Under the pieces are notes generated by a model. It ran no database searches, was not told the DNA's origin, and saw nothing but the letters and a program-made list of their open reading frames with translations. Made by a program: the position numbers and the translations under genes. A stretch of 63,580 nt of DNA, the filler included, from Folioceros fuciformis (lineage: Eukaryota): assembly GCA_049999805.1 (NCBI GenBank). It is 8 parts of 8 records of this genome, joined end to end, with 100 filler letters (N's around TTAATTAATTAA, not from the genome) between each part and the next. Parts side by side here need not be neighbours in the genome. Positions count along the whole stretch, not along the records: positions 10,141 to 21,312 come from JBNGIO010000999.1; positions 21,413 to 40,887 come from JBNGIO010001000.1; 6 more parts are not named here. One strand, written 5' to 3'. This document shows, piece after piece, positions 12,904 to 35,892 of the stretch (position 1 is the stretch's first letter; every line of letters starts with the position of its first letter).

Positions 12904-15900
12904 TCAGTTAAAATCCCCACAGGAGCAGACGCCATCCTTAAAGTGATGAACACGGTGTGCATCTCGGATGATGATCTCGCGGTTTTCAATCTTAGAGATG
13001 GCTTTGGTTCCGTTGTGGCAGTGATCACACATCCGCAGATTCTTGTTCAAGAGCAACGTCGAGCCTTCCGGAGTGTTGAGGAGGCCAAAAGCCAAGGCCA
13101 GCTTCTCAGCATGTCCACACAAGGCATCATCCTCCTCTAGGTCGTACGGTGGCTTGGATGCTGGGTCAAATTGGGACTCCCGTTTCTGCTTCTCTGCTTC
13201 TACATTCAAGCTTTTAAGCTTGGCAGATAGATCATCCCTCATTTCACCCACAGTGAACTCGTGAACCGTGTCATTGACTTGAATCACAGCCTTTGCAAGC
13301 TTCTTTACAGCACCGGTGCTTCTCATGGATTTGTCAATGGAGTCTGCGTCCTCTTGCATGCCAGCCTCGGCATAGAGTTTCGACATGAGAACGTACGCAG
13401 AAGCCTCTTCGGGGTCCTGTTCCACAAGCATATCAAAGCATAGTCTTCCTCGTTCCACCGCACCGTGACTTCTGCATGAACTCAGCAAAGATATCCACCT
13501 GGCACTCGCAGGTGTGAAGGAGCTCACCAAGCTATGGGCGTCCTCGAGGTAGCCTGACCTGCCGAAAAGATCGACTACACAGGTGTAGTGTTCGTCTGTA
13601 GGCACGATGCCGTGGTCGTCGATCATGAGCTTGAAGTAGTGAAGACCCTCCTTCACCAGTCCCACATGACTGCATGCTACAAACAGAGAGGTGAATGTTG
13701 CAGCATCTGGCAGAACCCTATGCCTCTGCATGGCTTCAAAGCATTTAATGGCCAACCCACATTCATTATGCTGCCCGTAGCCGTTGATGAGGGCGTTCCA
13801 TGTCACCACATCCTTCACCAAGAGTCTGTCAAAGAGTGACTGAGCATCGGACAGGCTCCCACATTTCGCATACATGTCCACAAGCGAGTTTCCCACTGTT
13901 ACTTCGGCCTCCAGCCCGCTCTCCAGGATATCGTCGTGGATGTGCCTGCCCTCCTTCAAGGCACCTATGCTAGCACAGGCTTTCAGGATGCTCAGGTAGG
14001 TGATAACATCTCGGGTAACACCATTCTGCTGCATCCCTTCATATAGTTTGAGCGCCTCCCTACCAAGTCCACACTGCACGTATCCAGCGATCATCGTGTT
14101 CCATATCACCTCAGTCTTGGTCTGCAGTACGTCGAAAACACTGCGGGCCGCCTCAAGGTCCCCACATTTCGAATACATGTCGATCAGCGAGCTGCTGACA
14201 GATGCATCTTTGAGCAGCCTCCTCTCCAAGATGTGGTCATGGATCTGTTTGCCTTCTTGTAATGCTCCTATGCTGCTACAAGCTTTCAAAACACTTACGA
14301 ATGTCGCACCGTCTGGTATCATGCCTCCATGTCGCATGATCATGTACAGGGCCAACGCTTCTTGGCCAAGCCCCTGGCGACCATATCCAGCTATCATGGT
14401 ATTCCAGGTTACCAGATTTCTGTTGCACAGTTTGTCAAAGACTCCACGAGCATCATCCAGGCTCCCACATTTAGCATACATGTCTACCAATGCACTACCT
14501 ACAAACACCTCCGACTCTAATTTCTGGTGTGAAATTTGCACATGGACCTGCCTGCCCTCCTGGATGGCTCTCAAACTTCCACATGCTTTCAGCACACTTA
14601 AGAAAGTGACACCGTCAGCAGTTACTCCATTGGAAAGCATTCTCGAATAGAGGTCAAGAGCCTCTTGAAAACGTCCGTGTTGTACATAGCCTGCGATCAT
14701 TGCATTGAAGGTCACCACATTTTTCTTCGACATTCTGTCAAACACTCTACAGGCATCTTGCAGGCTCGCACATTTGGCATACATGTCTACAAGTGTGTTC
14801 AGAACCGAGGTATCTACTTGCCCTGATCCCTGCAGAATTTCCTCATGGACTTGCCTGCCCTCCTTGATGGCTCCAACGCTGCTGCATGCTTTAAGAACAC
14901 TGACAAATGTGGCACTGTCCGGTGTCGTGCCATCCCGTTGCATGGCCTGATACAGTTTCAGAGCTTCATGACCCAGCCCATTGAGAACATAACCTGAGAT
15001 CATGGTGTTCCACGTGACCACATTCTTTGTCACCAAGCCATCGAACACCCTACGAGCATCCTCCATGCTCCCGCACTTGGCGTACATATCAATCAACGTG
15101 CTCCCGACAAACACATTCGACTCCAACTCGCTGTCCACAACGTCAGCATGGACAAGCTTCCCAGATGTCAAATCGCCTCCAGTAGCACACGCTTTCAGGA
15201 CAGCGACTAATATATAATCGGTTGGCCTCACATTGGAAGCTCGCATCTGCCAGTAAAGCTGTATCCCATCGAAGGGCCTCTTGTTCTCTGCATGAGCAGA
15301 GATGATAGAAGCCCACACAAATTCATTAGGTGCGGGTAGCTTTCTGAACACCCGGTTTGCTTCATCCATGATTCCATGAGAAGCATACATGCGAATCATG
15401 TGGTTTCCCAAGAAAGCATTGGAGCCATGCCCCGTCCTCACCGTGAGGTCATGAACCTTTCTGCCAAAATCCAAGTCCTTCCTGGCCATGCACCCTTTCA
15501 ACAGAGCGTACAGCATGTCCCTCGACACAGCACTTCCATGCTGCCACAGGAGATCCACCTCCTGAAAGGCCTCATCCCACTGCCCTCGCTCACACAATTT
15601 GCTCCACGATGCTTCAGCCTCCACCACCCTGATTTGTGAAAAGGGCTGGTAAGTTTCCACCCAACCGACCAGCACCAGCATAAGCCACAAACCATGACAA
15701 ATGAAATCAGCTGCAAGCATACTGCCTGCACCTCCCAAGCCCGTAACAGACACGGCTAGACTCCAAAGCAGAATCCCCGCTCCGCTGCTGCAAGGATGCA
15801 GTAGTTGGCCAGGGCTTTGGGCGGTGCACATTGCTGCCCTTGAAATGAGCCCCAACTCCATCCAAGGGCCTCAGGCTCGCCAAGCCCCTCCTCCTGCAGG

Positions 15901-15964
15901 GCCATCCCTGCAGCTGCCTCAACGACCCACAAGACAGCAGCAGCCCAGGCCCGCGTTTCCTCAT
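12904..15964 (-). CDS. PLS-class PPR protein with E1/E2 and DYW:KP-type domain ending DFN; candidate U-to-C editing factor
   Basis: P-L-S arrays (VVTWN..., TF.SVLKAC..., LVDMYAKCGS...). C-terminus KKLAKAVIQV...HAEKLALAFGLLNTP...KNLRMCDHCH...CSCGDFN. Proposed model: exon1 15964-15723, 94-nt intron (GTATGC...AATCAG), exon2 15628-12904; phases match. Confidence 0.93.
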
Positions 15965-16004
15965 CCGGACACAGGGTCATCCAAGTCATCCAGCTCCTGT
16001 CAAC

Positions 16005-16087
16005 ACCAGCCCAGCTCAGCGCAGACCAGCCCAGCCCAGCTCAGCGCAGACCAGACCAGCCCAGCCCAGCCCAGCCCAGCCCAGCCC
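16005..16087. repeat. (CCCAG)n-like pentanucleotide microsatellite upstream of the PPR gene
   Basis: CAGCCCAGCTCAGCGCAGACCAGCCCAGCCCAG... imperfect 5-bp array. Confidence 0.85.
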
Positions 16088-17374
16088 GTTCTGCTGCTGC
16101 CAGTAGTCAGCCCGTGACAATCAGGCGAAGTAGAGAAAGGAATCTTGTCAGGGCCTCGCTTTGTTGCACAATCCTCGACCTCCGGCAATAGAATAAATTC
16201 GAAAAGCGGGTGATTTTACCCATGAGTGAAAACGGTACTTCCTGCCTCGCTGCGTCCTCGGAGAAAGGCGCCCATCTGCCTCTTCTCCTTCTCTTCTCCT
16301 GCAGCTGCTGCTCCTCCTCCTTCTCCTTCTCCTTCCCCCATCTCTGCCCCCCACCACACACACAACACCCGAGACTCGTCACTCTGTGCTGACGTGCTCT
16401 GCTTCTCTTCCACTTACTCTGCTGTTGCTGCTGTTGCCGAATGTATCGCACACATTCTGCAACGCCCACATCAGACCGTCATCCTTTTGCAACGTGAATC
16501 AGCCATCGAAGGACATCGTAAACGGGCAGCCCGCCGTCAATGCGCTGATCCTTGTAAGCACACTCCCATTTTTCTCCGCCGGCAGGCAGGCAGTCGATGT
16601 TCCCCCCTGTCGGTTGCAGCTCCTCCAACCTGCCGCCTTTGCTGAACTGGCTTCTTGGATGCACACAGATTCCTTGGCTCAATCCCTGAGATATGCATAG
16701 ATTCCTCTTCCCAAGCTTAGAGTGCAGCTTTCTTCTACTCTTGTATTCCGCTCTGTTGTTTTTTTCGTGCGCACTTGCTGCCGATTGCTCTCCTTTCTCG
16801 ATTACTCATCCAAGGTTCTGATCCGAACGAGCTTGTGGCAATTTTGTGTCAGCTCTCGCTGATAGATTTTGGGAATCTGTGCAGGGGATAGCATGGGCTT
16901 CCCAGTCCCCATCTCCCTGAGGTAGCATGGAAAAATGATTTTTTTTTCTTCTCTCTTCAGCAATGCAGTGCAGCATCCCCATGCACGAGGCTGCTGTAGA
17001 TTGTGACTCTGCTTCGCGAATTCCTCCCATCGCTGAATAGTGTCTGTCCTGCGTGCTTGTATCCCAGTCCCCGCATGCTACCATCGCTGAAGGCGGTGCT
17101 CGAATTCCTGCCCGCTCTGCTTTTTCCTCGCTCACTGTATCCAGCTGAGCTGATCGTGTGATGCCGTCGTGTGATGCCGTCGTGACACGACTGATCTTGC
17201 AAGCAGGCCAGCAGATGATCTGAATCCCGTCGTACGGCCTTGCAATTTCCCGGAATGTGCGGCATGTGTTGCTTCCAGAATGTGCAATTGGGTGTCGTGC
17301 GTCTTGTACGATGGTGATCGGAGGACTAAGAGGTTGCTGGTGTGCGGGTGTTCCTTTGCGTGGATGTGTTGCAG

Positions 17375-21312: not shown

Positions 21313-21412
21313 NNNNNNNNNNNNNNNNNNNNNNNNNNNNNNNNNNNNNNNNNNNNTTAATTAATTAANNNNNNNNNNNNNNNNNNNNNNNNNNNNNNNN
21401 NNNNNNNNNNNN
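21313..21412. other. Artificial contig linker
   Basis: N44-TTAATTAATTAA-N44. Confidence 0.99.
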
Positions 21413-22512
21413 ACACTAAATTGGGCCATTTTGTTTTGGTGTAATAATTGTTATGCATGTTTTTGTGATATTCTTTCTATGATTCTGAAACAAATAACAA
21501 GTAAATTATGAACACTATGTAGATTTTCATTAGCTAAAAAATGATAATAATTCATTAAATTTTAAATAAAGCTTGTAGATGGAAGATCTAATGTAGCTTA
21601 GGTTTACACTTTCTCTGTAAGTACTATGATCTTTCTATCAAATCTAAAACTTAGCTTACCAGCAAATTCAAAACCTAGTAGTATGCACTTCTTTGGTTGG
21701 AAGAGTGGTAGCAGGCTTGTTTCGTAGTAGAAGAGAGGTAGGTAGAAAAAATAGGTTATGTGAATTGTTAACACATTGTTAGAGCCATATATGGTTACTT
21801 AACAACTAAACTAATTGGTGTATTAGATTAGATGGGATGGGAGCTTTGGGGGAGCTGATGGGCTGTGGCCTACACACACGTTGCGGCAAGGGCAAGTGCC
21901 TGACAGCAACAAGTCCGTTCCAATCGCCCATAATAGAGCCTGTGACTTTTTTTACGCAGGAAAGGCGATGAAAAAAAGGGAGGAGAAAGGAAGCGTGGCA
22001 CTTTGTGACGTAATGTAGGCCAGGAAAGGAGAAGTGCATCGGAGAGGGCGAGAATGTGGGCGAGGCGAGGAACCAGACTAGTTTATTATTACTGTAGGCA
22101 AGTCAAGGGGATCCACATCGCTGGCTCAGATCTACGTTACCCGGTGAATAAGAGAGAGGGAGGTGGGGACTCCAGGTGGGCTGCAGAAAAATCAGAAATG
22201 TGCTGTGGAGCACTGAGAAGTACTGTGTGTTGGACTTTTCCCAGATCAGCGTCGGATTTAGCTTGGGGGTGTGCTATGACCTGTGGCTGTACGAATGGAC
22301 AAAGAATATGGCAGACTGTCATCTGACATTCAGATTAGTGCACTTGTCAACCTCCTCCCATTCTCGCCATCCCATTGGCCTGCACCTCATAGCTTACATC
22401 ACAGCACCACTGTCAGGATGTCACGATGTTGCAACAGAGGCTGGCAGAATGGTAGACCTCATCAGACTTGGACTAGATGCAACCCGGACAAAGACACAAA
22501 ATGGCCACCCAC

Positions 22513-25500
22513 TCAATGCTCATCCCCACACGAGCAAGACCCCTCCACGAAACGATGCACTCGGTGTGCATCTCGGACTAGGATCTCTCGTTGCTCCAAA
22601 CGAGACATGATTTTGGTGCTGCTGTGACAGTCACTACACATCCGCAGGTTTTTTGTGACCAGCAGAGTGGTGCCATCTGGAGTGTTGAGCAGGCCATAGG
22701 CCAGGGCTAGTTTCTCTGCGTGCCCACACAGGGCGTTTTCCTTCTCCCGCTCCGACACAGCTTTCAGCACTAGCTCCGTTTGTGCCACATGCCCTCCCTC
22801 TTCCTTCGCCTTTGCACTCATGCTCCTCAGCTTCCATGAGATGTCGGACCTGTCTTCCCCCACCGTGAACTCGTGCACCTTCTTCTGCACTTCAATGCAC
22901 GCCTTGGCAGGTTTCTTGCAGGCACCTGCAGACTTCCTCATGCTCTCTACCTTGACCACGTCCTTCCACCTCCCCTCACTGGCCAGGATGTTACTCAAGA
23001 GAACGTATGGAGTTGCGTTGCCGGGTTCCAGTCTCACCAGGTGATCGAAACATCGTCTTCCCCGCTCTAGATCACCGTGCCCCTTGCAAGCACTCAGCAG
23101 ACACGTCCAGCCCACAGCATGGTGTTCCATGGAGACTGTCTGCAGCATGTTTTCTGCCTCGTCAAGATGGCCTGATCGTGCCAGAAGATCCACCATGCAA
23201 TTTCTGTGATAGTCGCTGGGTGTGAGACCATAATCCTCCAGCATCATTCTGAAGTACTCCTGGCCCTCACGCACCAGGCCCGCATGACTGCAAGCCACCA
23301 GCACACATATGAAGGTCGTCTCATCCGGCTCCATGCCTCGCTCACGCATCTCTTCGAAACATTGTACGGCCATACGACCGTCGCCATTCTCAGCATAGCC
23401 TTTGAGGAGAGCACTCCAGGTCACCACGTCTCCAACGGCACTCCTGTCAAGTACTCTGCGTGCATCTACTAAGCTCCCACACTTGCAGTACATGTCTATT
23501 AGGCTGCTGGCAACATGGTCATCACATTCCAGCCCTCGTTCACGGATCTGTGCATGCAGCAGCTTCCCGTTGTGTAGCGCTCCCACACTTCCACATGCTT
23601 GAAGGAGACACAGAAATGTGACACGATTGGCCAAGGTCGCACCCTCCTCCTGCATCTTTTCATAAACAGCAAGGGCTCCTCCACCCATACCCTGCCGCAT
23701 ATACCCTGCAATCATAGAATTCCACGTCACCACGTCTCTACTTGGCAGTCTTTCAAAGACCATGCGAGCATCATCCAAGCTCCCACACTTCACGTACATG
23801 TCCACCAAGCAGTTGCCCACTGATACCTCGGCTTCTAATCCTCTTTCCTGGATCCGTGAATGAAGCTGTTTCCCGAGGTGCAGATCCCCGATTCTTGCAC
23901 ATGCTTGGAGCAGGCACACGAATGTAACACGGTTAGCAGACTGAGCACCCTCAAGTTCCATGCTTTCATACAGATCAAGCGCTTCCTGACCAAACCCATC
24001 ATGAGCATACCCTGCGAGCATGGCCGTCCATGTCACCAGATTTTTCTTGGGCAGTCTGTCAAACACTACGCGGGCATCTTCTAAGCTCCCGCATTTTGCA
24101 TACATGTCAACCAAGGAGCTACCAACGAAAAGATCAGCTTCTAGTCCCCTTTCCAGGACCTGTACATGAAGTGCCTTTCCATGGGGCAGAGCTCGAACTC
24201 CTGCACATGCTTGAAGGAGGGCCACAAATGTGACCTCGTTGGCTGGGGTGATGCCCTCCTGCTGCATTCTTGCATGCAGGCCAAGAGCCTCATAACCCAT
24301 GCCCTGCTCAGCGTATGCTGTCACCATGGCCGTCCACGTCACCACATCTCTCCTGGGAAGGCTGTCAAACACTCTACGAGCATCCCTCAGGCTCCCACAT
24401 TTTGAATACATGTCCACCAGGGAGTTTCCTACTAGTGTATCAGTATCTAGGCCCCTCTCCTCAATTTCTGCATGGAGCTGCTTCCCCTCGTGCAGTGCTC
24501 CCACGCTGGCACACGCTTGAAGCAGGCACGCGAAGGTAACATGGTTGGCAGAAGATATGCCTTCCTGTTGCATACTGGCATACAAAGCCAGGGCTTCATG
24601 ACCAAGACCCTGCTGCACATATCCTGAGACCATGGCGTTCCATGTGACCACATTTCTCGTGGGCAGTCTGTCAAGTACTGCCCGGGCATCCACTAGGGTC
24701 CCACATTTGCAATACATGTCCACCAAGCTGGTGCCAACAGACACATCAGCTTCCAGATCTCTTTCATGAATCTGGAGATGGAACTGCTTGCCCTGTTCCA
24801 ACTCTCCCACGATGGCACACGCTTGCAGGAGGCACACAAACGTCACCTGATTGGGTGGAGTGCCCTCCTGCTGCATGTTAGCATACAAAGCCAATGCCTC
24901 CCGGCCTAGCCCTTGCTGATTATACCCTGCGATCATGGCATTCCATGTCACCACATCTCTCCTCGGCAACCCACGAAACACCCTGCCCGCATCCTCCAAG
25001 CTCCCACATTTAGCATACATGCTCACCAGACTGTTCCCAACGAACATATTGACCTTAACAGCACTAGCCACTATCTCAGCATGGACTTCCTTGCCGCAAC
25101 CAAGATCCTCTGCAGCGGCACAAGCCTTGAGACCTGCCACAAACACATGGTTGTCTGGCTCCACACTTGAAGCCCGCATACGTCGATAAAGCTTTATACC
25201 TTCCACGGGCTCCCCACAACGAACATGAGCCAAGATGACGGTGGCCCATAGATAGGCATCGGGTTGTGTGACTCCATGAAACACCTCCACTACATCATCC
25301 AGCCTGCCGTGGGCAGCATACATGCTAACAATCTGGTTGGCCAGGACGGGATTCGTCTCACACCCACTTGTAGCGGCAATTTTGTGAACCCGAGCGGCAA
25401 GAGCCATATCCTTTTGTGCAATGCACCTGCTCAGGACACGGTAGAAAACAGAGGTCCTGACGGAAAGTCCTCGTTGCACCTGGAGGTCTAGGGCTCCAAC

Positions 25501-25872
25501 AACGTCCCTCAGCTTGGCCCCCTCACAGCGTTCTATCAGGACACTCTCCATGGCAGCCTTTTTATCCACTGCGCAAGCAGGCTTGTCTTTGGTTTCCATG
25601 GTTGCGATGCGCTTGAAGGCAGAATACCGGAGGCTTCGGTGAGTAACCTGACCATTGGGGAGGAGGCCATGCTTGGACACCCGTCTCCCCTCAACACTTG
25701 TTTCTTCGGTGGAACAGGTTTGGGAAAGCGTTGAGCTTGCCTGCAACCGTAACGTCTGTTCGGACTCGAGAGCAGAGCTTGCCTGCACGCATAGGGTGTG
25801 CTGGGACTTGGACCGAGACTTCGAGAGCGGAAGGATCGATGGCAACTCCAGCACCTTTGCCATCCGCTCCAT
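22513..25872 (-). CDS. PLS-class PPR protein with DYW:KP domain ending DEH (DRH-like); candidate U-to-C editing factor
   Basis: Intronless 1119-aa ORF with a Ser-rich N-terminal extension and about 23 PPR motifs. C-terminus KKPAKACIEV...HAEKLALAYGLLNTP...KNLRMCSDCH...CSCGDEH. Confidence 0.95.
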   Translation of the reverse strand: MERMAKVLELPSILPLSKSRSKSQHTLCVQASSALESEQTLRLQASSTLSQTCSTEETSVEGRRVSKHGLLPNGQVTHRSLRYSAFKRIATMETKDKPACAVDKKAAMESVLIERCEGAKLRDVVGALDLQVQRGLSVRTSVFYRVLSRCIAQKDMALAARVHKIAATSGCETNPVLANQIVSMYAAHGRLDDVVEVFHGVTQPDAYLWATVILAHVRCGEPVEGIKLYRRMRASSVEPDNHVFVAGLKACAAAEDLGCGKEVHAEIVASAVKVNMFVGNSLVSMYAKCGSLEDAGRVFRGLPRRDVVTWNAMIAGYNQQGLGREALALYANMQQEGTPPNQVTFVCLLQACAIVGELEQGKQFHLQIHERDLEADVSVGTSLVDMYCKCGTLVDARAVLDRLPTRNVVTWNAMVSGYVQQGLGHEALALYASMQQEGISSANHVTFACLLQACASVGALHEGKQLHAEIEERGLDTDTLVGNSLVDMYSKCGSLRDARRVFDSLPRRDVVTWTAMVTAYAEQGMGYEALGLHARMQQEGITPANEVTFVALLQACAGVRALPHGKALHVQVLERGLEADLFVGSSLVDMYAKCGSLEDARVVFDRLPKKNLVTWTAMLAGYAHDGFGQEALDLYESMELEGAQSANRVTFVCLLQACARIGDLHLGKQLHSRIQERGLEAEVSVGNCLVDMYVKCGSLDDARMVFERLPSRDVVTWNSMIAGYMRQGMGGGALAVYEKMQEEGATLANRVTFLCLLQACGSVGALHNGKLLHAQIRERGLECDDHVASSLIDMYCKCGSLVDARRVLDRSAVGDVVTWSALLKGYAENGDGRMAVQCFEEMRERGMEPDETTFICVLVACSHAGLVREGQEYFRMMLEDYGLTPSDYHRNCMVDLLARSGHLDEAENMLQTVSMEHHAVGWTCLLSACKGHGDLERGRRCFDHLVRLEPGNATPYVLLSNILASEGRWKDVVKVESMRKSAGACKKPAKACIEVQKKVHEFTVGEDRSDISWKLRSMSAKAKEEGGHVAQTELVLKAVSEREKENALCGHAEKLALAYGLLNTPDGTTLLVTKNLRMCSDCHSSTKIMSRLEQREILVRDAHRVHRFVEGSCSCGDEH

Positions 25873-26421
25873 ACATGGGCTCCAATCCAGGCACCATGTC
25901 CTCCTCTACGTCGGCGGCGGGATGAAAGGGTCTACACATGGAGAACCAAATATCTGGGCTTCGGACCGAGGGGATTGGACGTCACGGACCCAACTTGATG
26001 GCAACGTGCAAAAAAGTGGAGAGAACTCGAACGACAAAATACACTCGTGCAGATATGCGGGAGCTCACGAAAGACGCCACGATCGACCACAGAAGGAAGA
26101 CTTGCAAGACAGCAACACGGACAGGGAAGGTCGGGGAAGATCACTACCATCACAGCCATTTAATAGCTCGTACACAAAGCTGCATCAAATACTACTGAGC
26201 TGAGCTAATTCACTCCCCAAGAACACAAGGCCGGCTACAAACTCGTAGCCCTTTCAAATCAAGGTTGGCGGTCAAAATTTGAGCTCCGCCACTCTCCACA
26301 ACCAGTCCCAATGATACGCAGTGGCGCGGGCAAAATTGATTCAGTCCAAACCACTATTGGTATACCACAAACAGTATCAAAAAAAGGGCAGAAACTACCC
26401 GTGGACTGTCCTACCACATAT

Positions 26422-27127
<706 letters not shown>

Positions 27128-27208
27128 CTTGCTGGCCGCCGGAGCACGAAGAGCAAGCAAAGACGGTATGTCGCAGCGCTGCCGACGGTCGTCTTCAGAG
27201 ACAAAGAG

Positions 27209-27686: not shown

Positions 27687-29126
27687 ATGGCGGACAGCAG
27701 ACCGCATCTACTCGTGTATGCCTTGAGAGGAGGCTTGGAAGGAGCTATCAGCGCAGCGAACAACGGATTCTTGAGTCCAGCAGTATGGAGCGCGCTTCCG
27801 GACCATCTCGTGGAAAGGGTGCTGCTTGTCCTGCCCCGCGGAGTCCAGCACAGGTTCCGTGTGGTTTGCAAGAAGTGGCTTGCATTGCTAACCTCTCCAA
27901 GATTCCTGTGGCTGAGCGAATCTTTGGCCCCTCGTCCTGCTGCTCCTCTGGTTTGTGCGTTCGAGTACTGGAACGGAGTGGAACCGGAGACACGGATGTA
28001 CAGTCCCAACCCTAACAGGCCGTGCACCAGATCATCCTTTTCTGAATCAGCTCTTGGCAAAGCGTACAGGCTGGACCTGTCATACCTTCCCCAGAAATTT
28101 CACGAATGGTTTGAAATGTGGGGTACTGGTGACAAGAGGGCAAAGCTGCGGCGTGATGCAAGGACTTGGGAGCTGCGGCGTGACTATTCCTCTCAGGTTT
28201 GCGGCTCGGTAGGAGGATTGATCTACCTGCTCAATGATGACGATGGATGGGAACTCAAAGGACATCGTATTCTTTCCGTATGCGTGCTGAATCCTTTCAC
28301 CAGAACATGGAGGGAGCTTCCACAGCTGCTTATTTTCAAAGAGTGGACCTGCTGGACGGTCAAGCTGGAGGTTGACGACCCTGATGGCAGTGGCTTTAGG
28401 TTCACTGCCGTATGTGGATCTAGTATCATGTGCATGGATTACCGGGTGCCTTTCAACTGGAGCGTGTATGTATACAGTTCTGCCGAGGGTAAGAATGGCT
28501 GGGAGGTTACCGTGGGGCAGCCTGCGAGCGAATGGCCCAAGGAGCGCGTGCTGGCAGGAGGTTTGATGTATGGTTACCAGGTTCCAAGCGGAGGGCTGAT
28601 AGTTCACAGCCTTCTTGATGGTTGTCTTGTTGCGAGGGAGAGTTATCCGAGTGCACTTCAGCGTGAACTTTCCCTGGACGAAAGGATCGGTCGCCCTTTC
28701 CATCCATACGCTCCCAAGCCATCCCTTTTGGAGCATATGGGAGCAGTGTATCTGGTAAGAGATTTTTTCGATCCCGAAGAAGAGTGGCAGATAGGAATCT
28801 GGAAGCTCGATTGGGATGTATCGGCAATGCATTGGGAGCTCAGGTCAGTGTTCCCTCGTGAGGTAGTGGATTTTGGGGAAGGTACTAGACAGTCACGTTT
28901 GCCTCTGGAGAGTTTCGACGCTGTCGTCATCGGCGACGAAATTTTTTTCATGCTGCCAGTCATGCACGCATGTCGAAATGGAGTTCCTGCTATATCATCC
29001 AGTTTGGTGGCTTTCAACCTGCGGGATGATTGTTGGCAGTTGGTGGCTGACAAAATGATTAGTCTAACTATGGCAACTGGCCGAAGCTACGGTCTGCTTG
29101 AACCTAAATTCAATCTGCGGATTTGA
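27687..29126 (+). CDS. F-box protein with divergent kelch/FBA-like C-terminal region, intronless
   Basis: F-box WSALPDHLVERVLLVLP...FRVVCKKW...SPRF, followed by GSVGGLI, VLNPFTRTWRELP, FEPK-like end (LLEPKF). Confidence 0.88.
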   Translation: MADSRPHLLVYALRGGLEGAISAANNGFLSPAVWSALPDHLVERVLLVLPRGVQHRFRVVCKKWLALLTSPRFLWLSESLAPRPAAPLVCAFEYWNGVEPETRMYSPNPNRPCTRSSFSESALGKAYRLDLSYLPQKFHEWFEMWGTGDKRAKLRRDARTWELRRDYSSQVCGSVGGLIYLLNDDDGWELKGHRILSVCVLNPFTRTWRELPQLLIFKEWTCWTVKLEVDDPDGSGFRFTAVCGSSIMCMDYRVPFNWSVYVYSSAEGKNGWEVTVGQPASEWPKERVLAGGLMYGYQVPSGGLIVHSLLDGCLVARESYPSALQRELSLDERIGRPFHPYAPKPSLLEHMGAVYLVRDFFDPEEEWQIGIWKLDWDVSAMHWELRSVFPREVVDFGEGTRQSRLPLESFDAVVIGDEIFFMLPVMHACRNGVPAISSSLVAFNLRDDCWQLVADKMISLTMATGRSYGLLEPKFNLRI

Positions 29127-29909
29127 TCATAGAAGACCCTTGCGGTTCAATGAACCAGGCTATGGCCCTTTGCATTGAAAGCACATTGTAGAAGGTTTAT
29201 GTTACCGCTTCTTGGAAAAGCGATGTGTAAATCCTTCAGGCAATCCAGTTCATTGAGAGGTACAAACAACAGACGCTGGGTACTACCAAGAGTCTGCAGG
29301 TATGGGACCTGTGCTTTGCAGTTGAGTCGAGCATTGGTGATGGGAACCTGTGACAAAATGGGCGCCTTGCTAGCCATGCTGCACTGATCCCAGTTCAGCG
29401 CCCTGCCACTTGGCAGCCGCAACCATTGCCATCCATGGATGTGTGAAAGCACTGATCACTGCAGCAAGTTGCAGCTTCTCGGAAGTTCCTTAGGCTAATC
29501 TATACCTGATACGATGGAGGCAAACTTTATGAATTAGATACCGAGAGGAAGCCACAATGCCTTCATGCTCTTAGCTCCGCACAAAGTGACCAACCAGCAA
29601 AAGACAATCGCTTACTCGGTATCGGTGATGCGCCCATTATCTCAACTCATAATTCTGTGGCATATTTACATGGAAAACAAACCTGCAGACATCCGCAGTA
29701 AGAGTCTGACATCAAAGCAGTGGCAAATTTCAAGAGCCTAAACCCGCACACCGGATACGTTCTCCAAAACTCACAGCTGAAGATCTCACAGTGAACCTTC
29801 ATTTCCATGCAAATTAAGGAGAGAATATGTTTGAACCCTTTCAAGACCGGAACATACAGGCCTACAAGAAAACACGGGCAGCAAGTGTAATCCAAGGATA
29901 CTCTGAATG

Positions 29910-30186
29910 GATCATTTAGCAACCAATGAGCGATCTGTTGTATATACTTAGACATGGGATTGCATGTACACATATATACATCTTCTTACGTAGCAGCTGG
30001 AACACTAAGGTATATATTGATCCATTCAGCAACCAATGAGCGATTTGTTGTATATACTTAGGCATGGGGTTGCATGTACACATATATACATCTTCTTACG
30101 TAACATGTTAGCTTGCCATGTGGATTGACTATGCATTGAGACAAGAGGCATGGATCATCAGCAGCTGGAACACTGAGGTATATATT
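29910..30186. repeat. Interrupted local duplication (~110-bp period)
   Basis: AGCAACCAATGAGCGAT.TGTTGTATATACTTAG.CATGGG.TTGCATGTACACATATATACATCTTCTTACGTA occurs twice; GCAGCTGGAACACT.AGGTATATATT occurs twice. Confidence 0.85.
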
Positions 30187-30228
30187 TATTTTTCGCATCT
30201 CCTCGTTGCAAAGACGACTAAAGCTTCC

Positions 30229-30770
30229 TATGGCATACTAATGAGAACAAAAGGGGATTCTTTTCTTTATATCTGTTTCAGGGTATCTATATACTCTCAA
30301 TGGCCATGACCGGTCATGGACTTTCCCAAAGTGGTCGTTGTCCCATAGTGGGATTAACCAGTGCAAGGATGTTGCCAAACCATAGTGGGGATTAACCAAT
30401 ACAAGGGTGTTGCCAAATCAAGGATATCGTCTCGATGTGCCCGAGACTATTACCACACAAAGGCCATGGCCTCAGGCTTTCATCTCCCATGAGCGGAACC
30501 ATGAAGAATACTGCATGTCAAGGTTGAGGCCTCGTGCCTCAAGCCCTTGTTTCAAGGTGAGGCCTTATGCCTCGCAACATTAGCTTCCTAAAGTCTGAAC
30601 TCAACTCAACTCGAAATTGCTTGCACTTCGAATGAGGTTAGACCATGTCATATGGCTTTTTTTTGACGGGGCAAATCTTGGTGGTAGGCACCACAACTAG
30701 TACCACAACCATCATATGTAGAGTTAAGAAAAAGTTCTAACACTCCACCTGTCCTCTTTGGTATGCCATA
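30229..30770. mobile_element. Non-autonomous TIR element (MITE-like) with 6-bp flanking direct repeat
   Basis: Left end TATGGCATACTAATGAGAAC; right end GTCCTCTTTGGTATGCCATA (17/20 inverted match). Flanked on both sides by GCTTCC. Confidence 0.7.
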
Positions 30771-32271
30771 GCTTCCACATCATTGTGTATGATGTCTAAA
30801 TTGAACTCACGTCACCTTAGTATATGAAAGGTTAAGGTGAAGCAACTAAAGCTTCTTGTCTGCTAATGGATGCCAAAGTTCACATACCTCTCTTGGTGGT
30901 TGTTGACAAAATGAATCTGTTCACAAACACAGTGTTGATCAAGAGGAAGGAAATAGAATGAGTACATAGAGATTGCAAAGCTAGGATGATTTTGCTTACA
31001 TGGTTGCATATAAGGCAAAACCTCGACTTTCTTGTTATTGTACTTTGTGATGATTGCGGAGGCAATTGGACACCTGCACTTTCTAGCGCGGGAGTCATGT
31101 GATCTATCAACTACATGCGAACACAAAAGAGTGAAGCGAGTGTGATCTAGTTTAGGGTTTAGGGTACCCTGAACCCTTTCTATGAGGGGTGAATTGTGCA
31201 TCTTTGGTCATAGCATTTGCCTCGTCTAAAGTTATCAACTTAATGTTTGAGGTGGTATTGCCATGAAGAAACATCCAGCATAGATGATATCAAAACACAA
31301 GTTTGCATCACACTAGGAAGCCCCCACTATCTGCACACAAATAACATCAGAACACAAGTCTGCATCGCACCAAGAAGCCCCCACTATGTGAACAACCAAA
31401 TTCCGAACAGTCACCTAAAGCCCATGCATTGAGTGTTGGCAAAGACTTGTGCTTGCTGATGGACAACATCAACATAGGGACAACCTTCACCAAGTCTCGT
31501 TGCAGCAAGGAGGATGAGTATTGTCCAACTTTCACCAAATCTAGCTGAGGAAAGAGGATGAGAAGCACACAACATTCACCAAATCCCAAGGATGAAGGAG
31601 GTTTTGCGACAAATCTAGCTCACAACCTTCACCAAATCTTGTCGAGGTTGGACAATGAGCACCACACAACCTTCACCAAGGATTGGGGTACCGCACTCAT
31701 TTTAAGCTTCCTTGAAAAATGGGATTGGGGTACTCCAATCCCATTTTAAGCTTCCTTTAAACCCTAAACCCTAATCCTGTGTTGATTGTCCTACGTCCAG
31801 TGTTTTGTTCCTTTAGTCATTACTACATTTCTATTTTATCTTCTCGAACTTTGGGAATTGAATTGAATGAAATTGAATGCGTAATATATATTCCGAATGG
31901 TTTGAGACGTGTTCATCTTCGCAGGTTTTTTCTTGTTGGCCGTCGATTGTGGTGCTTGGATAGCTGCCTACCTGGGTTGTTATGGCTGCCCATGCCGATC
32001 CTCGTTGGAAGGATCGTGGTAGGGAACCTCCCGATTTTACAGATCTGAGATTGAGATCCGGAGCGGCAGCAAGTAGGCATGGGCCGGATTTGTTCGTACA
32101 TGGAGGGTGTCTAAAAGGACGTTCGTTATCACGGTGGATATCGCTTCCCAGGCGAGAGATGAGGAGGGTGGAGAGGCGCACTCTTGGTCTTGATGGACAT
32201 ATGCGAACGCCAACCATACATGTGTAGGTAGTCTCTTGATACTCGGATTGTCCGACAACTGTTCCTGAACG

Positions 32272-35200
32272 ATGGCCTCAGTATGGCAAACGGACCCGGC
32301 GTGGACCCAGCAAATATTGGTGTGTCCAGGGGTTCTACCAGGAGCTCCCGCTCACCTCAGCTTAGGGGTTCAGCTCCTGGCAAACAAAGCCTCCAGGTGT
32401 AGCAGCGTAAGAAGCCTAGCACTTCCACTTCCACTTCCGACAGAATGTGTGGGTCGGGACGGGTTCTCCAGAGATGGTCGTTGCCAACAGCAGGAGCACT
32501 TGTGGCAACAATTCTTTCTGGACCCTTCTATGTGGTGGGACAACAGGCGAGATAAGAGGAGCTCCCGTTCGCCGGACTTTCGGCGTAAGGGGTCCGGGGA
32601 GGTCCTGTGGTTAAATGACATGTTTAAGCCAGCTTGGGTTGATGAGCAGCTCTATTCCTTGGATACGGAGATGGGTAATGGTGCCTCTCCTTCCGAGTCC
32701 AGGTCTCTGGACATGCCTGAACCTGGCAGGCGTGCAGGTTTGGAAATGGGCGTCGTTTGGGCTGTGCCAGTGAGCTTGTTATGTCAGCAGGGGAGGCTTT
32801 CTGAGGCCGTTGGTGTCCTGGAATCTCTGGCGGAGACACACTGTGCTATTCCTCAGTCTCTGTTTTGCACTGTGCTGAAGCTGTGTACCGCAAAGAAGGA
32901 TCTGGTTGTGGGGCGACGAGTTCATGGCATCATTGTGAGACTTGGGTACGAGTTGGATGCACACGTGGGGAACCATATCCTGCGCATGTATGCATCTGGA
33001 GGTAGGCTGCAGGAGGCCATGGATGTGTTCACCAGGGTCGGCAAACCGAATGCCTTCATGTGGTTTTCCATAATCTCTGCATATGCCAAGCATGGGAAAC
33101 CTAATGAAGCTATTCAGCTGTACCATAAGATGCGCAGGTCAGGAGTGAAGGCAGATGCTCACGTCTTTGCGGCTGCCCTTCAAGCTTGTGCATTTGCTGC
33201 TGACCTGGAATCTGGCAGAAAAGTGCACCATGATGTGTTGCACAGTGGCAGTCCTCTTGCCTTATATGTTGGCAACTCCCTGGTGAACATGTATGCAAAA
33301 TGTGGCGAACTGAAAGATGCGCGCCAGGCCTTTGACAGCTTGGCCACAAAGGATGTGGTGACATGGAATGCATTGATATCTGCATATACGAAATGTGGTG
33401 AACTGAGAGATGCACGCCAGGTGTTCAACAGGATGGACACAAAGAATGTGGTGACGTGGAATGTCCTGATAGCTGGGTACGCCCAGCAAGGGCTCGTACA
33501 TGAGGCGCTTGCTCTGTATGGACAAATGGAGCAGGAGGGCCTGGTTTTGGCTAATCATGTCACTTTTACTTGCCTTCTGAAGGCCTGTGCAAGCACTGGG
33601 GCTTCACAGGCGGGCAGGCAGTTGCACTCACAGATTGTTGAAAGAGGGCTGCTGGAGGGTGTTTCGTTGGGCAACTGCCTGGTGGATATGTATGCAAAAT
33701 GTGGTGAACTGAAAGACGCACGCCAGGTTTTCGAAAGCTTGGCCACGAAGGACGTGGTTACATGGACTGCGCTGATTGCTGGCTATGTGCAGCACGGGCT
33801 AGGACATGAGGCGCTTGCTGTGTATGGGCAAATGGAGCACGAAGGCCTGGTTTCGGCTAACCATGTTACTTTTGCTTGCCTTCTGAAGGCCTGTGGAAGC
33901 ACTGCTGCCTTACAAAAGGGCAGACAGCTGCATTCCCAGATTGTCAAAACGGGTCTCCTGGATGACGTAGACGTGGGCTCCTGCCTGGTGGACATGTATG
34001 TAAAATGCGGCGAAATGGAAGATGCACGCCAGGTTTTTGACAGTTTGGCCACAAAGAAGGTAGGGACGTGGACTACTCTGATTGCTGGATATACACGGCA
34101 AGGACTCAACCAAGAGGCGCTGGTTGCGTATGGACAAATGGAGGAGGCAGGCCTAACTTGGGCTGACAAAGTTCCTTTTGCTTGCCTTCTGAAAGCCTGT
34201 GGAAGCACTGGTGCGTTACAGAAGGGCAGGCAGTTGCACTCACTGATAGTCGAAAGAGGACTGCAAGATGACGTAGTAGTGGGCACCTGCTTGGTGGACA
34301 TGTATGCAAAATGTGGTGAGCTGAAGGATGCACGCCAGGTATTTGACAGCTTGGCCACAAAGAATGTGGTGACATGGACTGCTCTGATTGCAGGGTATAC
34401 ACAGGAGGGACTCGGCCAAGAGGCGCTGCTTGTGTACGGACAAATGGAGGAGTCAGGCCTTATTCTGGCCGACCACATTACTTTTGCTTGTCTTCTTAAG
34501 GCGTGTGGAAGCACTGGTGCCTTACAGATGGGCAGGCAGCTGCACTCACAGATTGTCGAAAGAGGACTGCTGGCTGATGTCGTCTTGGGCAGCTGCCTGG
34601 TGGATATGTTTGCCAAATGTGGGGAAATGGAAGATGCCCGCCAGGTTTTTGATAGCCTGGCCACAAAGAATGTGGTGACATGGACCGCCCTGATTGCTGG
34701 ATATGCCCAGCAAGGGCTCGGACATGAGGCGCTTTGTGTTTATGGAAATATGGAGCAGGAGGGCCTGCTTTTAGCTAACCACGTAACTTTTGCTTGCCTT
34801 GTGAGGGCCTGTGGCAGCACTGGTGCATTACAGAAGGGCAGGCAACTGCACTCACAGATTGTTGGACGAGGACTGCTGGATAACGTAGTGTTGGGCACCT
34901 GCCTGGTGGACATGTATGCAAAATGTGGTGAAATGAAAGATGCACGTCAGGTTTTTGACAGCATGAACACAAAGAATGCGGTGACATGGAATGCTCTAAT
35001 ATCTGGATATGGTACTTGTGATGATGGCCAAAGAGCACTAGCTTGTTTTGAGGAGATGTTAGTGGCCGGGATTCAGCCTGATGGTGCTACGTTCACTTCC
35101 ATTCTAGCAGCATGCAGTCATAGGGGACTGGTGTGCGAGGGCTGCAAGCACTTTGACTCAATGGCTGCAAAGCATGGCATCAAACCTAGTATTGAGCATT

Positions 35201-35892
35201 ACACCTGCATGGTAGATCTTCTTGGGCGTGCTGGCCGTTTAGATGAGGCGGAGAAAATGCTACTATCATGTGAGGGCCAAAGTGATATTGTTGTCTTGAC
35301 GTCTTTGTTGAATGCCTGCAGAATTCATGGGGATGTCGAGAGGGCTATGTGGTGCTTTGATAGCATTGTTAAGCTGGATTCTCAGGATGCGACCGCATAT
35401 GTGCTCATGGCAAATACCTACGCAGACGCCGGTAGGTGGACCGATGTAGACAGGATTGAGACGCACAGAAGGTTAGCAGGAGCGAACAAGAAACCTGCGG
35501 TTACTACCATCGAGGTGAATAGGCAGGTACACAGATTTCTGGTGGGAGAACGGAGAGAGGATATCGCGCTCAAGGTGGAGAGCACCAACGCGCGTCTGAA
35601 GCACGAAGGAGGCCATGTACCTCACACGAACTTGGTGTTGAAGCCACTGTCTGAGAAGGAAAAGGAAGATGCTCTTTGTGGACATGCTGAGAAGCTGGCT
35701 CTGGCTTTTGGTCTCTTGAACACTCCTTGTGGAACACCTCTGGTGGTAACCAAGAATCTCCGCATGTGCAACGATTGTCACAGCTCCACGGAGATCATGT
35801 CAAGGCTTGAACAAAGGGACATTGTTGTAAGAGATGGCTACCGTGTGCATCGATTCACAAATGGTCGTTGCACTTGTCAGGGGCGGCCGTGA
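32272..35892 (+). CDS. PLS-class PPR protein with N-terminal OSB-type PDF motif and DYW:KP domain ending GRP; candidate U-to-C editing factor
   Basis: 1206-aa ORF containing WQQFFLDPSMWWDNRRDKRSSRSPDF...LWL...PAWV, about 24 PPR motifs including one SS motif, and KKPAVTTIEV...HAEKLALAFGLLNTP...KNLRMCNDCH...CTCQGRP. The true start may involve an upstream exon. Confidence 0.95.
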   Translation: MASVWQTDPAWTQQILVCPGVLPGAPAHLSLGVQLLANKASRCSSVRSLALPLPLPTECVGRDGFSRDGRCQQQEHLWQQFFLDPSMWWDNRRDKRSSRSPDFRRKGSGEVLWLNDMFKPAWVDEQLYSLDTEMGNGASPSESRSLDMPEPGRRAGLEMGVVWAVPVSLLCQQGRLSEAVGVLESLAETHCAIPQSLFCTVLKLCTAKKDLVVGRRVHGIIVRLGYELDAHVGNHILRMYASGGRLQEAMDVFTRVGKPNAFMWFSIISAYAKHGKPNEAIQLYHKMRRSGVKADAHVFAAALQACAFAADLESGRKVHHDVLHSGSPLALYVGNSLVNMYAKCGELKDARQAFDSLATKDVVTWNALISAYTKCGELRDARQVFNRMDTKNVVTWNVLIAGYAQQGLVHEALALYGQMEQEGLVLANHVTFTCLLKACASTGASQAGRQLHSQIVERGLLEGVSLGNCLVDMYAKCGELKDARQVFESLATKDVVTWTALIAGYVQHGLGHEALAVYGQMEHEGLVSANHVTFACLLKACGSTAALQKGRQLHSQIVKTGLLDDVDVGSCLVDMYVKCGEMEDARQVFDSLATKKVGTWTTLIAGYTRQGLNQEALVAYGQMEEAGLTWADKVPFACLLKACGSTGALQKGRQLHSLIVERGLQDDVVVGTCLVDMYAKCGELKDARQVFDSLATKNVVTWTALIAGYTQEGLGQEALLVYGQMEESGLILADHITFACLLKACGSTGALQMGRQLHSQIVERGLLADVVLGSCLVDMFAKCGEMEDARQVFDSLATKNVVTWTALIAGYAQQGLGHEALCVYGNMEQEGLLLANHVTFACLVRACGSTGALQKGRQLHSQIVGRGLLDNVVLGTCLVDMYAKCGEMKDARQVFDSMNTKNAVTWNALISGYGTCDDGQRALACFEEMLVAGIQPDGATFTSILAACSHRGLVCEGCKHFDSMAAKHGIKPSIEHYTCMVDLLGRAGRLDEAEKMLLSCEGQSDIVVLTSLLNACRIHGDVERAMWCFDSIVKLDSQDATAYVLMANTYADAGRWTDVDRIETHRRLAGANKKPAVTTIEVNRQVHRFLVGERREDIALKVESTNARLKHEGGHVPHTNLVLKPLSEKEKEDALCGHAEKLALAFGLLNTPCGTPLVVTKNLRMCNDCHSSTEIMSRLEQRDIVVRDGYRVHRFTNGRCTCQGRP

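Follow-up and report, generated by a model that had tools for sequence, protein, structure and literature searches.

Introduction

The DNA described here raises the question of whether three pentatricopeptide repeat (PPR) genes encode native enzymes that edit organellar transcripts in the U-to-C direction, and whether they would do so singly or together. The genes lie in a 63,580-nucleotide stretch of Folioceros fuciformis DNA (the window), and a first-pass annotation had proposed that their DYW:KP domains mark them as a candidate reverse RNA-editing system. Its premise agrees with the literature; the DYW:KP class has been linked to U-to-C organelle editing in hornworts, ferns, and lycophytes (PMC9478123, PMC11845758), and KP genes are described as confined to lineages that carry out U-to-C editing (PMC9478123, PMC13386178).

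Integrity and Architecture of the Three Genes

Genes 1, 2, and 3 are uninterrupted open reading frames of 985–1206 codons, each running from ATG to stop (Table 1). Given the base composition of the window, the probability that the three frames would stay open by chance is 1e-21 to 1e-26, with the value of 1e-21 belonging to gene 1. Pfam identifies PPR families, E_motif, and DYW_deaminase in all three proteins, the last at 2e-31 (gene 1) to 4.5e-35. A tblastn search of the window with the three C-termini recovers three stretches that code for DYW domains and no more (12907–13326, 22516–22935, and 35470–35889), which bears out the first-pass count of three complete genes with DYW domains. The domain coordinates given in that annotation fall in the right places, but each of them spans the stop codon, the domain, and one extra N-terminal K.

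Table 1. Features of genes 1–3, in positions of the window.
Feature	Position	Strand	Remark
Gene 1 (P0001, 985 aa), PLS-class PPR with DYW:KP-like domain, tail DFN	12904-15861	-	open from ATG to stop
Gene 2 (P0002, 1119 aa), PLS-class PPR with DYW:KP domain, tail DEH, DRH-like subgroup	22513-25872	-	
Gene 3 (P0003, 1206 aa), PDF motif, PLS-class PPR tract, and DYW:KP domain, tail GRP	32272-35892	+	
Gene 1 DYW:KP-like domain, 132 aa	12907-13302	-	KP numbering
Gene 2 DYW:KP domain, 133 aa	22516-22914	-	KP numbering
Gene 3 DYW:KP domain, 133 aa, GRP subgroup	35491-35889	+	KP numbering
Gene 1 PPR tract: (L-S-P) triplets, P2-L2-S2, E1, E2	13303-15522	-	motif-by-motif segmentation
Gene 2 PPR tract including E1 and E2	22915-25458	-	motif-by-motif segmentation
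Gene 3 PPR tract including E1 and E2	32854-35490	+	motif-by-motif segmentation
Gene 3 N-terminal PDF motif (OSB-type), aa 70-130	32479-32661	+	WWDNR...PDFRRK...LWL pattern

Motif-by-motif segmentation yields 20, 23, and 24 PPR motifs in genes 1, 2, and 3, respectively, and in each protein the canonical order P2-L2-S2-E1-E2 precedes the DYW domain. Several P motifs of gene 2 are 36 residues long and end in AN. The PPR tract of gene 3 contains a 306-bp tandem repeat (33391–35011; 5.3 copies with 80% matches) that corresponds to P-L-S triplets, together with a second tandem repeat of 93 bp in 1.9 copies (33298–33475) and a hybrid 31-residue motif at residues 362–392. Many of the joints seen within 32400–35400 also occur in DNA-like runs, and they were read as cross-matches between repeated PPR motifs and not as introns.

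Diagnostic Residues of the DYW:KP Domains

The domains begin with KLAKAV in gene 1, KPAKAC in gene 2, and KPAVTT in gene 3, and the PG-box glycine is replaced by alanine in all three. The Lys–Pro pair is present in genes 2 and 3, both of which read KPA; the first description needs correcting for gene 1, which reads KLA and thus has KL rather than KP. After VGE, each domain has four residues fewer than the PG-type synthetic PPR-DYW protein 9kfx and OTP86 (7o4e) in HMMER alignments (1.5e-42 to 2.5e-33), confirming the reported loss of the SHP segment; the missing segment is xHP, with three to four residues deleted. Relative to OTP86, the four absent residues belong to the gating insertion (H837–G891 in the numbering of the original paper), at about 843–846 by alignment count.

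The remaining motifs can be read directly in all three domains and are as the first-pass annotation gave them. HAEKLA stands in place of HSEKLA, with Ala for Ser in the HxE motif; the CxxCH motifs are CDHCH, CSDCH, and CNDCH, and the terminal CxC motifs are CSC, CSC, and CTC within the ends CSCGDFN, CSCGDEH, and CTCQGRP, in genes 1, 2, and 3, respectively. H65, E67, K68, K88, C93, C96, and H97 (KP numbering) are kept in every case, K88 of gene 1 lying in the context KNLRMC. The two lysines, K68 and K88, are both critical in the designer protein KP6; they were mapped according to PMC11713852, in which K693 of KP6 directly follows HxE, and K713, 20 residues further on, aligns with OTP86 K915. 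PG-type domains conserve Lys88 and the zinc ligands too, so these residues cannot tell the two reaction directions apart.

Compared with canonical DYW:PG proteins, genes 1–3 have KPA or KLA for the PG box, HAE for HSE, and a non-DYW tail, and each domain retains none of the four canonical features (PG box, SHP segment, HSE, and DYW tail). The neighbouring protein P0191, encoded on the same contig, keeps a PG box (KKPGRSWIE), so the loss of this box in genes 1–3 is not genome-wide drift. Genes 2 and 3 fit the definition of DYW:KP domains, which comprises the KP start, the xHP deletion, a length of 132–133 residues, Ala or Cys in HxE, and a non-DYW tail; gene 1 fits it without the proline. Hornwort DYW:KP subgroups are reported to end in GRP or DRH (PMC9478123); the tail of gene 3 is a literal GRP, whereas DEH (gene 2) and DFN (gene 1) are not literal DRH.

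Phylogenetic Placement and Predicted Fold

A comparison set of 190 proteins gave 181 DYW domains after nine had been dropped because they contained no matchable HxE motif or were cut short. The rows were classed by motif, not by published HMMs, a PG row being one with HSE and a G in the PG box, and the 181 domains include 111 PG rows and 43 KP rows under this scheme. The four-residue segment is kept in 107 of the 111 PG rows, whereas it is down to one or two residues in 34 of the 43 KP rows; the domains of genes 1–3, in which one residue is left, all fall among these 34.

Trees of 181 and 115 DYW domains were built by a quick method with SH-aLRT as the sole measure of support, and they place genes 1–3 in a clade composed entirely of HAE domains, apart from PG-type domains. 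The clade descending from the last ancestor that genes 1–3 have in common holds 30 tips (SH-aLRT 85), with 28 KP rows, two mixed rows, and no PG rows, and a 64-tip clade (SH-aLRT 88) contains all 43 KP rows. With the diagnostic columns removed, support for the two clades is 83 and 96, respectively. Gene 3 lies in a five-tip clade whose tails are all GRP (SH-aLRT 97 and 95), and gene 2 groups with rows ending in DRH, DAH, or DHH. P0004 is a closer relative of gene 3 than gene 1 or gene 2 is (72% over the C-terminus), and the first named database matches, at 57% and 51% identity, are from ferns and stand behind 21 nearer matches. By both motifs and phylogeny, the three genes are members of the known DYW:KP class, as the first reading had proposed.

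The C-terminus of gene 3 is predicted to be a cytidine deaminase-like fold with a DYW gating insertion. The AF2 model of residues 1048–1206 has a pLDDT of 93.5, and its best Foldseek match is 9kfx_A (E 6e-18, TMq 0.89, rmsd 1.8), with 7o4e, 7o4f, and 7w86 among the further matches (TMq range 0.63–0.89). With OTP86 (7o4e/7o4f), DYW1 (7w86), and the synthetic 9kfx, the KP genes share the fold, the catalytic Glu, the zinc ligands, and the lysine of KNLR, as well as the P2-L2-S2-E1-E2 series ahead of the domain.

Candidate U-to-C Editing Factors

The three nuclear genes probably encode one organellar RNA-editing factor each, specific for its own sites and belonging to the PPR-DYW:KP class; by analogy, these factors would act in the U-to-C direction. 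Organelle targeting, target sites, and reaction direction are what we infer here. The protein would be imported into the plastid or the mitochondrion, where its PLS tract of 20–24 motifs would read about 20–24 nucleotides upstream of a single target site or a small number of them, at one motif per base, with S2 opposite position −4. The DYW:KP domain, a zinc-dependent deaminase fold whose gating insertion is shortened, would then work on the position-0 pyrimidine. If it behaves as the designer KP proteins do, Lys88 would attack C4 of the uridine, aided by Glu67 and the catalytic zinc, to form a Schiff-base conjugate that would be converted to cytidine in planta.

The analogy derives from seven consensus designs, of which the active ones are KP2 and KP3, both GRP-based, and KP6, the DRH-based KP1 not being among them (PMC9478123). 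K88A abolishes U-to-C editing by KP2, KP3, and KP6 (PMC11845758), and the active-site lysine Lys88 has been implicated as the nitrogen donor (PMC11845758, PMC11713852), by which the first-pass remark that the amino donor is poorly resolved has become outdated. The U-to-C product has been reported to stay crosslinked to the enzyme in bacteria (PMC11845758), so full turnover may need plant factors.

As KP2 and KP3 are GRP-based and KP1 is not among the active designs, direct precedent covers gene 3 only, and U-to-C activity seems likely for this protein. Gene 3 corresponds to the hornwort GRP consensus of KP2 and KP3 (Ichinose et al. 2022, PMC9478123) in its GRP tail, KPA start, xHP deletion, HAE motif, Lys88, and length of 133 residues, a match made by the published description; in KP2 and KP3 a consensus domain follows a short designer tract, (P1-L1-S1)3, whereas the natural gene 3 protein has 24 PPR motifs of its own, a PDF motif, and a presumed transit peptide. 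Gene 2 resembles the hornwort DRH-type DYW:KP domains and KP1 in its KPAKAC start and deletion and differs in the middle residue of the tail (E versus R). Since KP1 is not one of the three active designs among the seven, the subgroup of gene 2 is without even a consensus-level demonstration; U-to-C activity of gene 2 is still favoured, a little less firmly than that of gene 3. For gene 1, the chance appears about even, and none of the designer proteins found described in the accessible portions of the literature represents its KL subgroup.

A rival reading, which is unlikely, takes the three proteins as organellar editing factors that deaminate C to U in vivo, or edit both ways, their KP-type sequence notwithstanding. 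In its favour, no catalytic HxE, CxxC, or zinc-2 residue is missing, the modelled fold of gene 3 matches that of C-to-U enzymes, and KP6 performs C-to-U editing in human cells (PMC11845758) and in vitro, with single substitutions reported to flip the direction (PMC11845758, PMC11713852); moreover, the activity of natural KP proteins was stated to be unknown in February 2025 (PMC11845758), and we found no later report of editing by a natural KP protein in the literature. In E. coli, however, KP2 and KP3 edit U-to-C with no C-to-U activity, and HAA and AxxA mutants abolish this editing (PMC9478123). All three genes have Lys88, on which U-to-C editing by designer KP proteins depends and which limits their C-to-U editing, the substitution of HAE for HSE reduces the deaminase activity of PG-type domains (PMC9478123), and the reported restriction of KP genes to U-to-C lineages also speaks for U-to-C editing.

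Slightly less probable still is that at least one gene, with gene 1 the foremost suspect, has lost catalysis or is decaying, either as a non-editing RNA binder or as a young pseudogene that is still open. Gene 1 has KL for KP; the segment before its HAE motif diverges and lacks one residue that genes 2 and 3 have there, and the segment aligning with the gating beta-finger is atypical. In addition, its S2 motif is 30 residues long versus the usual 32, the first 80 residues from the predicted start are hydrophobic-looking and atypical, and its Pfam DYW match begins at profile position 15 instead of 1. Against decay stand the open frame of 985 codons, with the chance value given above, and the intact zinc ligands, Glu67, K68, and K88. 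The rows nearest to gene 1, P0025 and P0027, also start with KLAKAV, and KL is therefore a conserved subgroup trait and not a lesion.

Genomic Context and Read Support

The first-pass annotation called the three genes a candidate "system" and noted that they lie on two contigs; that they co-operate in U-to-C editing or are physically clustered is very improbable. Genes 2 and 3 do share a contig at a distance of 6.4 kb, with a fourth PPR gene 2.7 kb beyond, but they are separated by an RPS23 gene and an F-box gene, and gene 1 is on another contig, across the N-spacer at 21313–21412. The three are independent paralogues with 44–52% whole-protein identity that each have closer relatives elsewhere (P0004 for gene 3), the PLS-DYW factors known so far each work alone at sites of their own, and close neighbours are expected where 1,583–2,308 PPR genes per hornwort genome are reported (PMC13386178). 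That genes 2 and 3 arose by a recent tandem duplication was likewise rejected, their DYW domains being just 69% identical. Contamination or a prokaryotic origin was set aside as well, since the window carries PPR, F-box, xyloglucan fucosyltransferase, and spliced RPS23 genes. A neighbouring gene is of the E+ type, and this, with the GRP and DRH tails, makes a hornwort the probable source (PMC9478123, PMC13386178).

Contigs of run X1 cover gene 2 at 22160–24102 and 24074–24951 with no differences, and this run contains a fraction of 0.65 of the sampled words of the gene 3 stretch. For RPS23, a neighbouring gene, X1 contains joined forms without introns, which are absent from runs X2 and X3; together with the cover of gene 2, these forms are a hint of transcription. 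The stretch 29863–31812 has no cover in X1 and is covered in X2 and X3, an observation that carries no evidential weight.

The PDF Motif of Gene 3

Upstream of its PPR tract, gene 3 carries a PDF motif (Table 1). A profile built from five such motifs matches proteins named OSB1, OSB2, and OSB3 (1e-20 to 9e-61; for example, Amborella OSB3 at 9e-61, Ricinus OSB2 at 1.8e-37, and Linum OSB1 at 3.5e-35), as well as many PPR proteins. A single-sequence search with shorter lengths of the motif gave no match, and no Pfam model matched the PDF region at E values up to 10; within residues 1–193, Pfam found neither an OB-fold/SSB domain (PF00436) nor any other non-PPR family. The OSB proteins, which bind single-stranded DNA in organelles, have the PDF motif, of about 50 residues, in common with gene 3. 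In these proteins, the motif is C-terminal to an OB fold, whereas in gene 3 it stands N-terminal on a PPR editing factor that has no OB fold. Gene 3 thus carries the motif yet, as judged from its domain content, is not an OSB protein.

Many other PPR proteins from non-seed plants carry the PDF-PPR fusion, of which no description was found in the literature. Tentatively, the motif may be a functional accessory nucleic-acid-binding module, and PDF-PPR(-DYW) proteins, both KP- and PG-type, may represent a widespread architecture, so far without a description, among proteins of hornwort-like, lycophyte, moss, liverwort, and fern origin, a reading that we regard as possible and rather doubtful.

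Implications for U-to-C Editing

With about 1,500–2,300 PPR genes reported per hornwort genome (PMC13386178), genes 1–3 are, on their sequences, ordinary members of a very large family, within its candidate U-to-C editor class. Such genes are abundant in every published hornwort genome, and these three add little beyond examples. Programmable RNA editors for U-to-C conversion are still immature, the available tools being consensus designs that stall as enzyme–RNA crosslinks in bacteria. Full-length natural genes are concrete test material in this respect, gene 3 most of all, as GRP is the sole hornwort subgroup with demonstrated consensus activity, and genes 1 and 2 sample the KL-type and DRH-like subgroups. 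The PDF-PPR fusion is the one point here that may be new; if the PDF motif is indeed a functional module, it might help to tether the editor to single-stranded RNA or nucleoid DNA, and could matter for how natural KP editors complete U-to-C turnover.

Domain Architecture and Diagnostic Motifs

Three genes, designated gene 1 (P0001), gene 2 (P0002), and gene 3 (P0003), encode PPR proteins that end in a DYW:KP-type domain, and they are exactly the three DYW-coding stretches detected in the window by tblastn. Matches to PPR families, E_motif, and DYW_deaminase were found in all three by Pfam (DYW_deaminase at 2e-31, 4.5e-35, and 4e-32, respectively). Motif-by-motif segmentation resolved each protein into regular L-S-P triplets (35, 31, and 35–36 aa), followed by P2 (35 aa), L2 (36 aa), S2 (30–32 aa), E1 (34 aa), and E2 (34 aa) motifs and the DYW:KP domain. 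The domain is 132 aa long in gene 1 and 133 aa in genes 2 and 3, which are the two KP domain lengths quoted in the accessible text of PMC11845758.

The motifs listed in the first-pass annotation, which had proposed the three genes as a candidate U-to-C editing system, were all recovered: the altered PG box, a 4-residue gap after VGE relative to the solved PG-type structures 9kfx and 7o4e (OTP86), the shared HAEKLA, CxxCH, and CxC motifs, and the C-terminal tails DFN (gene 1), DEH (gene 2), and GRP (gene 3). The KP-type start holds for genes 2 and 3 (KPAKAC and KPAVTT) but not for gene 1, which begins with KL (KLAKAV). Gene 1 also has a divergent segment, one residue shorter, preceding HAE, and its Pfam DYW match begins at profile position 15. 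By our own count along the alignment, the 4-residue deletion falls at approximately OTP86 residues 843–846, inside the gating insertion delimited by Takenaka et al., as far as that work is quoted, as OTP86 H837–G891.

In KP numbering, K1, P2 (Leu in gene 1), A3, G64, H65, A66, E67, K68, K88, C93, C96, and H97 are present in all three domains. According to the accessible text of PMC11713852, the designer consensus protein KP6 loses U-to-C activity without either K693, directly after HxE, or K713, which lies 20 residues further on and aligns with OTP86 K915. The equivalent residues, K68 and K88, are kept in all three genes; as PG domains likewise keep both lysines and the zinc ligands, these residues are necessary rather than diagnostic. 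The C-terminal 159 residues of gene 3 were modelled with AlphaFold2 at a mean pLDDT of 93.5, and the best Foldseek matches to the model were the RNA-bound synthetic PPR-DYW protein 9kfx_A (TMq 0.89, rmsd 1.8 Å), OTP86, and DYW1.

In genes 2 and 3 (22915–25458, minus strand, and 32854–35490, plus strand), most P motifs in the central part of the tract are 36 aa long and end in (S/L)AN, the usual form being 35 aa with PD or PN. Within 33298–35011 (plus strand), gene 3 contains 5.3 tandem copies of a 306-bp unit with 80% matches; the unit corresponds to whole P-L-S triplets, which points to internal duplication as the way the tract grew. A 93-bp repeat (1.9 copies) in the same gene coincides with a hybrid motif of 31 aa (aa 362–392), giving two consecutive S-length motifs. 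PPR-code strings, predicted from the segmentation with the PPR code and written 5′ to 3′ to end at position −4 (a dot marks an L motif, n no prediction, and Y C/U), are.Yn.AU.YU.AU.nU.UU.n for gene 1,.Un.UY.AY.UA.AA.UY.GG.n for gene 2, and.Yn.UYY.UA.nG.AG.AA.AU.G for gene 3.

Classification within the DYW:KP Class

When 1.84 billion representative proteins were searched with a profile built from the three C-termini, 2,926 matched at E ≤ 0.001, 1,907 at ≤ 1e-10, and 430 at ≤ 1e-30. The best 150 of the 2,926 profile matches and the 41 matches of a separate search, the two sets overlapping in part, gave a comparison set of 190 proteins, 181 of them with a usable domain. By our own motif rule rather than the published HMMs (PG, HSE with Gly in the PG box; KP, HAE or HCE without that Gly), these 181 comprised 111 PG, 43 KP, and 27 mixed rows. 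In a tree built by the IQ-TREE quick method, with SH-aLRT support only, the last common ancestor of the three window proteins defines a 30-tip clade (28 KP, 2 mixed, and 0 PG; support 85), which is nested in a 32-tip clade (support 95) and enclosed by a 64-tip clade (support 88) holding all 43 KP rows, 19 mixed rows, and 2 PG rows.

Because the diagnostic columns could themselves drive this grouping, a second tree, of all 70 non-PG rows and 45 randomly chosen from the 111 PG rows, was built without the PG box, the segment lost in KP domains, the central position of HxE, and the C-terminal triplet. The same three clades were recovered (supports 83, 92, and 96), so the expected clustering with KP rather than PG domains was borne out, and membership of the three genes in the KP class is well supported. 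Gene 3 falls in a 5-tip clade whose tails are all GRP (support 97 in the full tree and 95 without the diagnostic columns), gene 2 is placed among proteins with DRH, DAH, or DHH tails, and gene 1 groups (support 73–87) with P0025 and P0027, both of which likewise begin with KLAKAV. The two fern proteins, from Ceratopteris and Adiantum, lie within a sister group of six. The closest match is 72% identical over 157 aa, and the fern matches (57% and 51%) follow 21 better ones. Hornwort KP proteins are described in the accessible text of PMC9478123 as two subgroups, DRH and GRP, named from their last three residues, a split with which the KP clade found here agrees.

Genomic Context and Possible Transcription

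The 63,580-base window is plant nuclear DNA made up of eight contigs, with spacers composed of N44, TTAATTAATTAA, and N44. It contains five PPR-coding stretches (tblastn).

Features of the window, with supporting evidence
Feature	Position	Strand	Evidence
Spacers between contigs	10041-10140, 21313-21412, 40888-40987, 45811-45910, 51415-51514, 59047-59146, 61705-61804		
Gene 1 ORF	12904-15861	-	ATG to stop, 985 aa
Gene 2 ORF	22513-25872	-	ATG to stop, 1119 aa
Ribosomal protein S12/S23 (RPS23) gene, between genes 2 and 3	26120-26999	-	Pfam 3.9e-20 and 2.2e-16, two exon ORFs
F-box and KIB1-4 beta-propeller-like ORF	27687-29126	+	Weak, 5e-05 and 3e-05
Gene 3 ORF	32272-35892	+	ATG to stop, 1206 aa
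Fourth PPR gene, P0191	38605-40650	+	Ends shortly past canonical PG box, KKPGRSWIE...VHSFEVGDKRH
Xyloglucan fucosyltransferase ORF	57634-59046	-	5e-58
PPR-coding fragment	61805-63580	-	Whole 1.8-kb contig open, 591 aa, at least 8 PPR repeats, cut at both ends

Given the base composition of the window, the chance probability of frames as long as those of the three genes staying open is 1e-21 to 1e-26. As first described, the genes are spread over two contigs, with gene 1 on contig 2 and genes 2 and 3 on contig 3. Their reading as a single system did not hold up: the whole proteins are 44–52% identical, each has closer relatives elsewhere, and genes 2 and 3 are separated by unrelated genes. Hornwort genomes carry 1,583–2,308 PPR genes each, according to the accessible text of PMC13386178. 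PPR genes reportedly account for ~7.9% of Anthoceros angustus genes.

P0191 stops just past the PG box and therefore belongs to the E+ type, a truncated form of DYW:PG, although it adjoins the KP genes; such proteins are enriched in hornworts, as the accessible text of PMC13386178 states. Together with the GRP and DRH-like tails, this neighbour makes a hornwort the likely source of the window. A contig of sequencing run X1 skips 38595–38724, so P0191 has a 5′ intron and a start upstream of the ORF.

None of the three runs compared with the window (X1, X2, and X3) is recorded as RNA. Within the RPS23 gene, X1 contigs run straight from 26561 to 26641 and from 26768 to 26882. The segments left out are bordered by CT..AC, equivalent to GT..AG in minus-strand reading; they are introns, 79 and 113 bp long, that are removed in an X1 contig whose word depth is high. 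As the same joints were absent from runs X2 and X3, X1 behaves like RNA. X1 contigs cover gene 2 at 22160–24102 and 24074–24951 with zero differences, and X1 contains a fraction of 0.65 of the words sampled from gene 3, a hint rather than proof that genes 2 and 3 are transcribed. At 27885–28071, X2 and X3 depart from the window at 13 positions at which X1 agrees with it; these differences may reflect different strains or alleles.

Likely Function and Subgroup Precedent

From class membership and analogy, graded by subgroup, we infer that each gene most likely encodes a site-specific organellar editing factor. The PLS tract would read the bases upstream of the editing site and the KP domain would turn U into C, with the catalytic Glu helping to rearrange an enzyme–RNA conjugate, the hydrolysis of which would free cytidine in planta. 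A designer KP conjugate persists in bacteria, according to the accessible text of PMC11845758 and PMC11713852; the earlier description of the amino donor as poorly resolved is outdated, as the question has since advanced.

In the accessible text of PMC9478123, three of seven consensus designs are active: KP2 and KP3, built on GRP-type domains, and KP6, built on fern domains. Gene 3 shares the GRP subgroup with KP2 and KP3 and thus has a direct subgroup precedent, whereas gene 2 resembles the DRH subgroup, whose design KP1 is absent from the active ones named there; the KL-type subgroup of gene 1 is not named among the designs in that text. The activity of natural KP proteins is stated as unknown in the accessible text of PMC11845758, and no later report on it was found in a literature search mostly covering journals outside subscription.

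A PDF Motif Fused to the PPR Tract of Gene 3

N-terminal to its PPR tract, gene 3 carries at aa 70–130 (32479–32661, plus strand) the motif W..FF.DPS.WWDNR...PDF(R/K)(R/H)K...LWL...P.WV, which we take to be the PDF motif of the OSB organellar ssDNA-binding proteins. Six of 191 proteins, gene 3 included, matched a regular expression for the motif, namely KP-type P0003, P0004, and P0015 and PG-type P0091, P0155, and P0178. A single-sequence search with the motif gave no matches; of 703 candidates, 252 matched a five-motif profile at E ≤ 0.01, among them proteins that bear the names OSB1, OSB2, and OSB3, together with many PPR proteins, some with a DYW domain and some lacking one, from Diphasiastrum, Sphagnum, Calypogeia, Selaginella, and Adiantum. 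The layout was surveyed in 121 proteins (116 new ones among the matches listed and the five query proteins); 59 of these look PPR-type by a crude PPR-motif count, again among the matches listed, and in them the first of one to three PDF motifs starts at residue 8–187. P0004, to which gene 3 is most closely related, shows the same PDF–PPR layout, so the fusion is not an artefact of ORF calling. The PDF motif, of ~50 aa, is sufficient for ssDNA binding in AtOSB1, according to the accessible text of PMC6963530. Among the papers covered by a full-text literature search, none was found to link the motif with PPR proteins. The three genes add to a known kind, and the PDF–PPR fusion may be the one lead here that is new.
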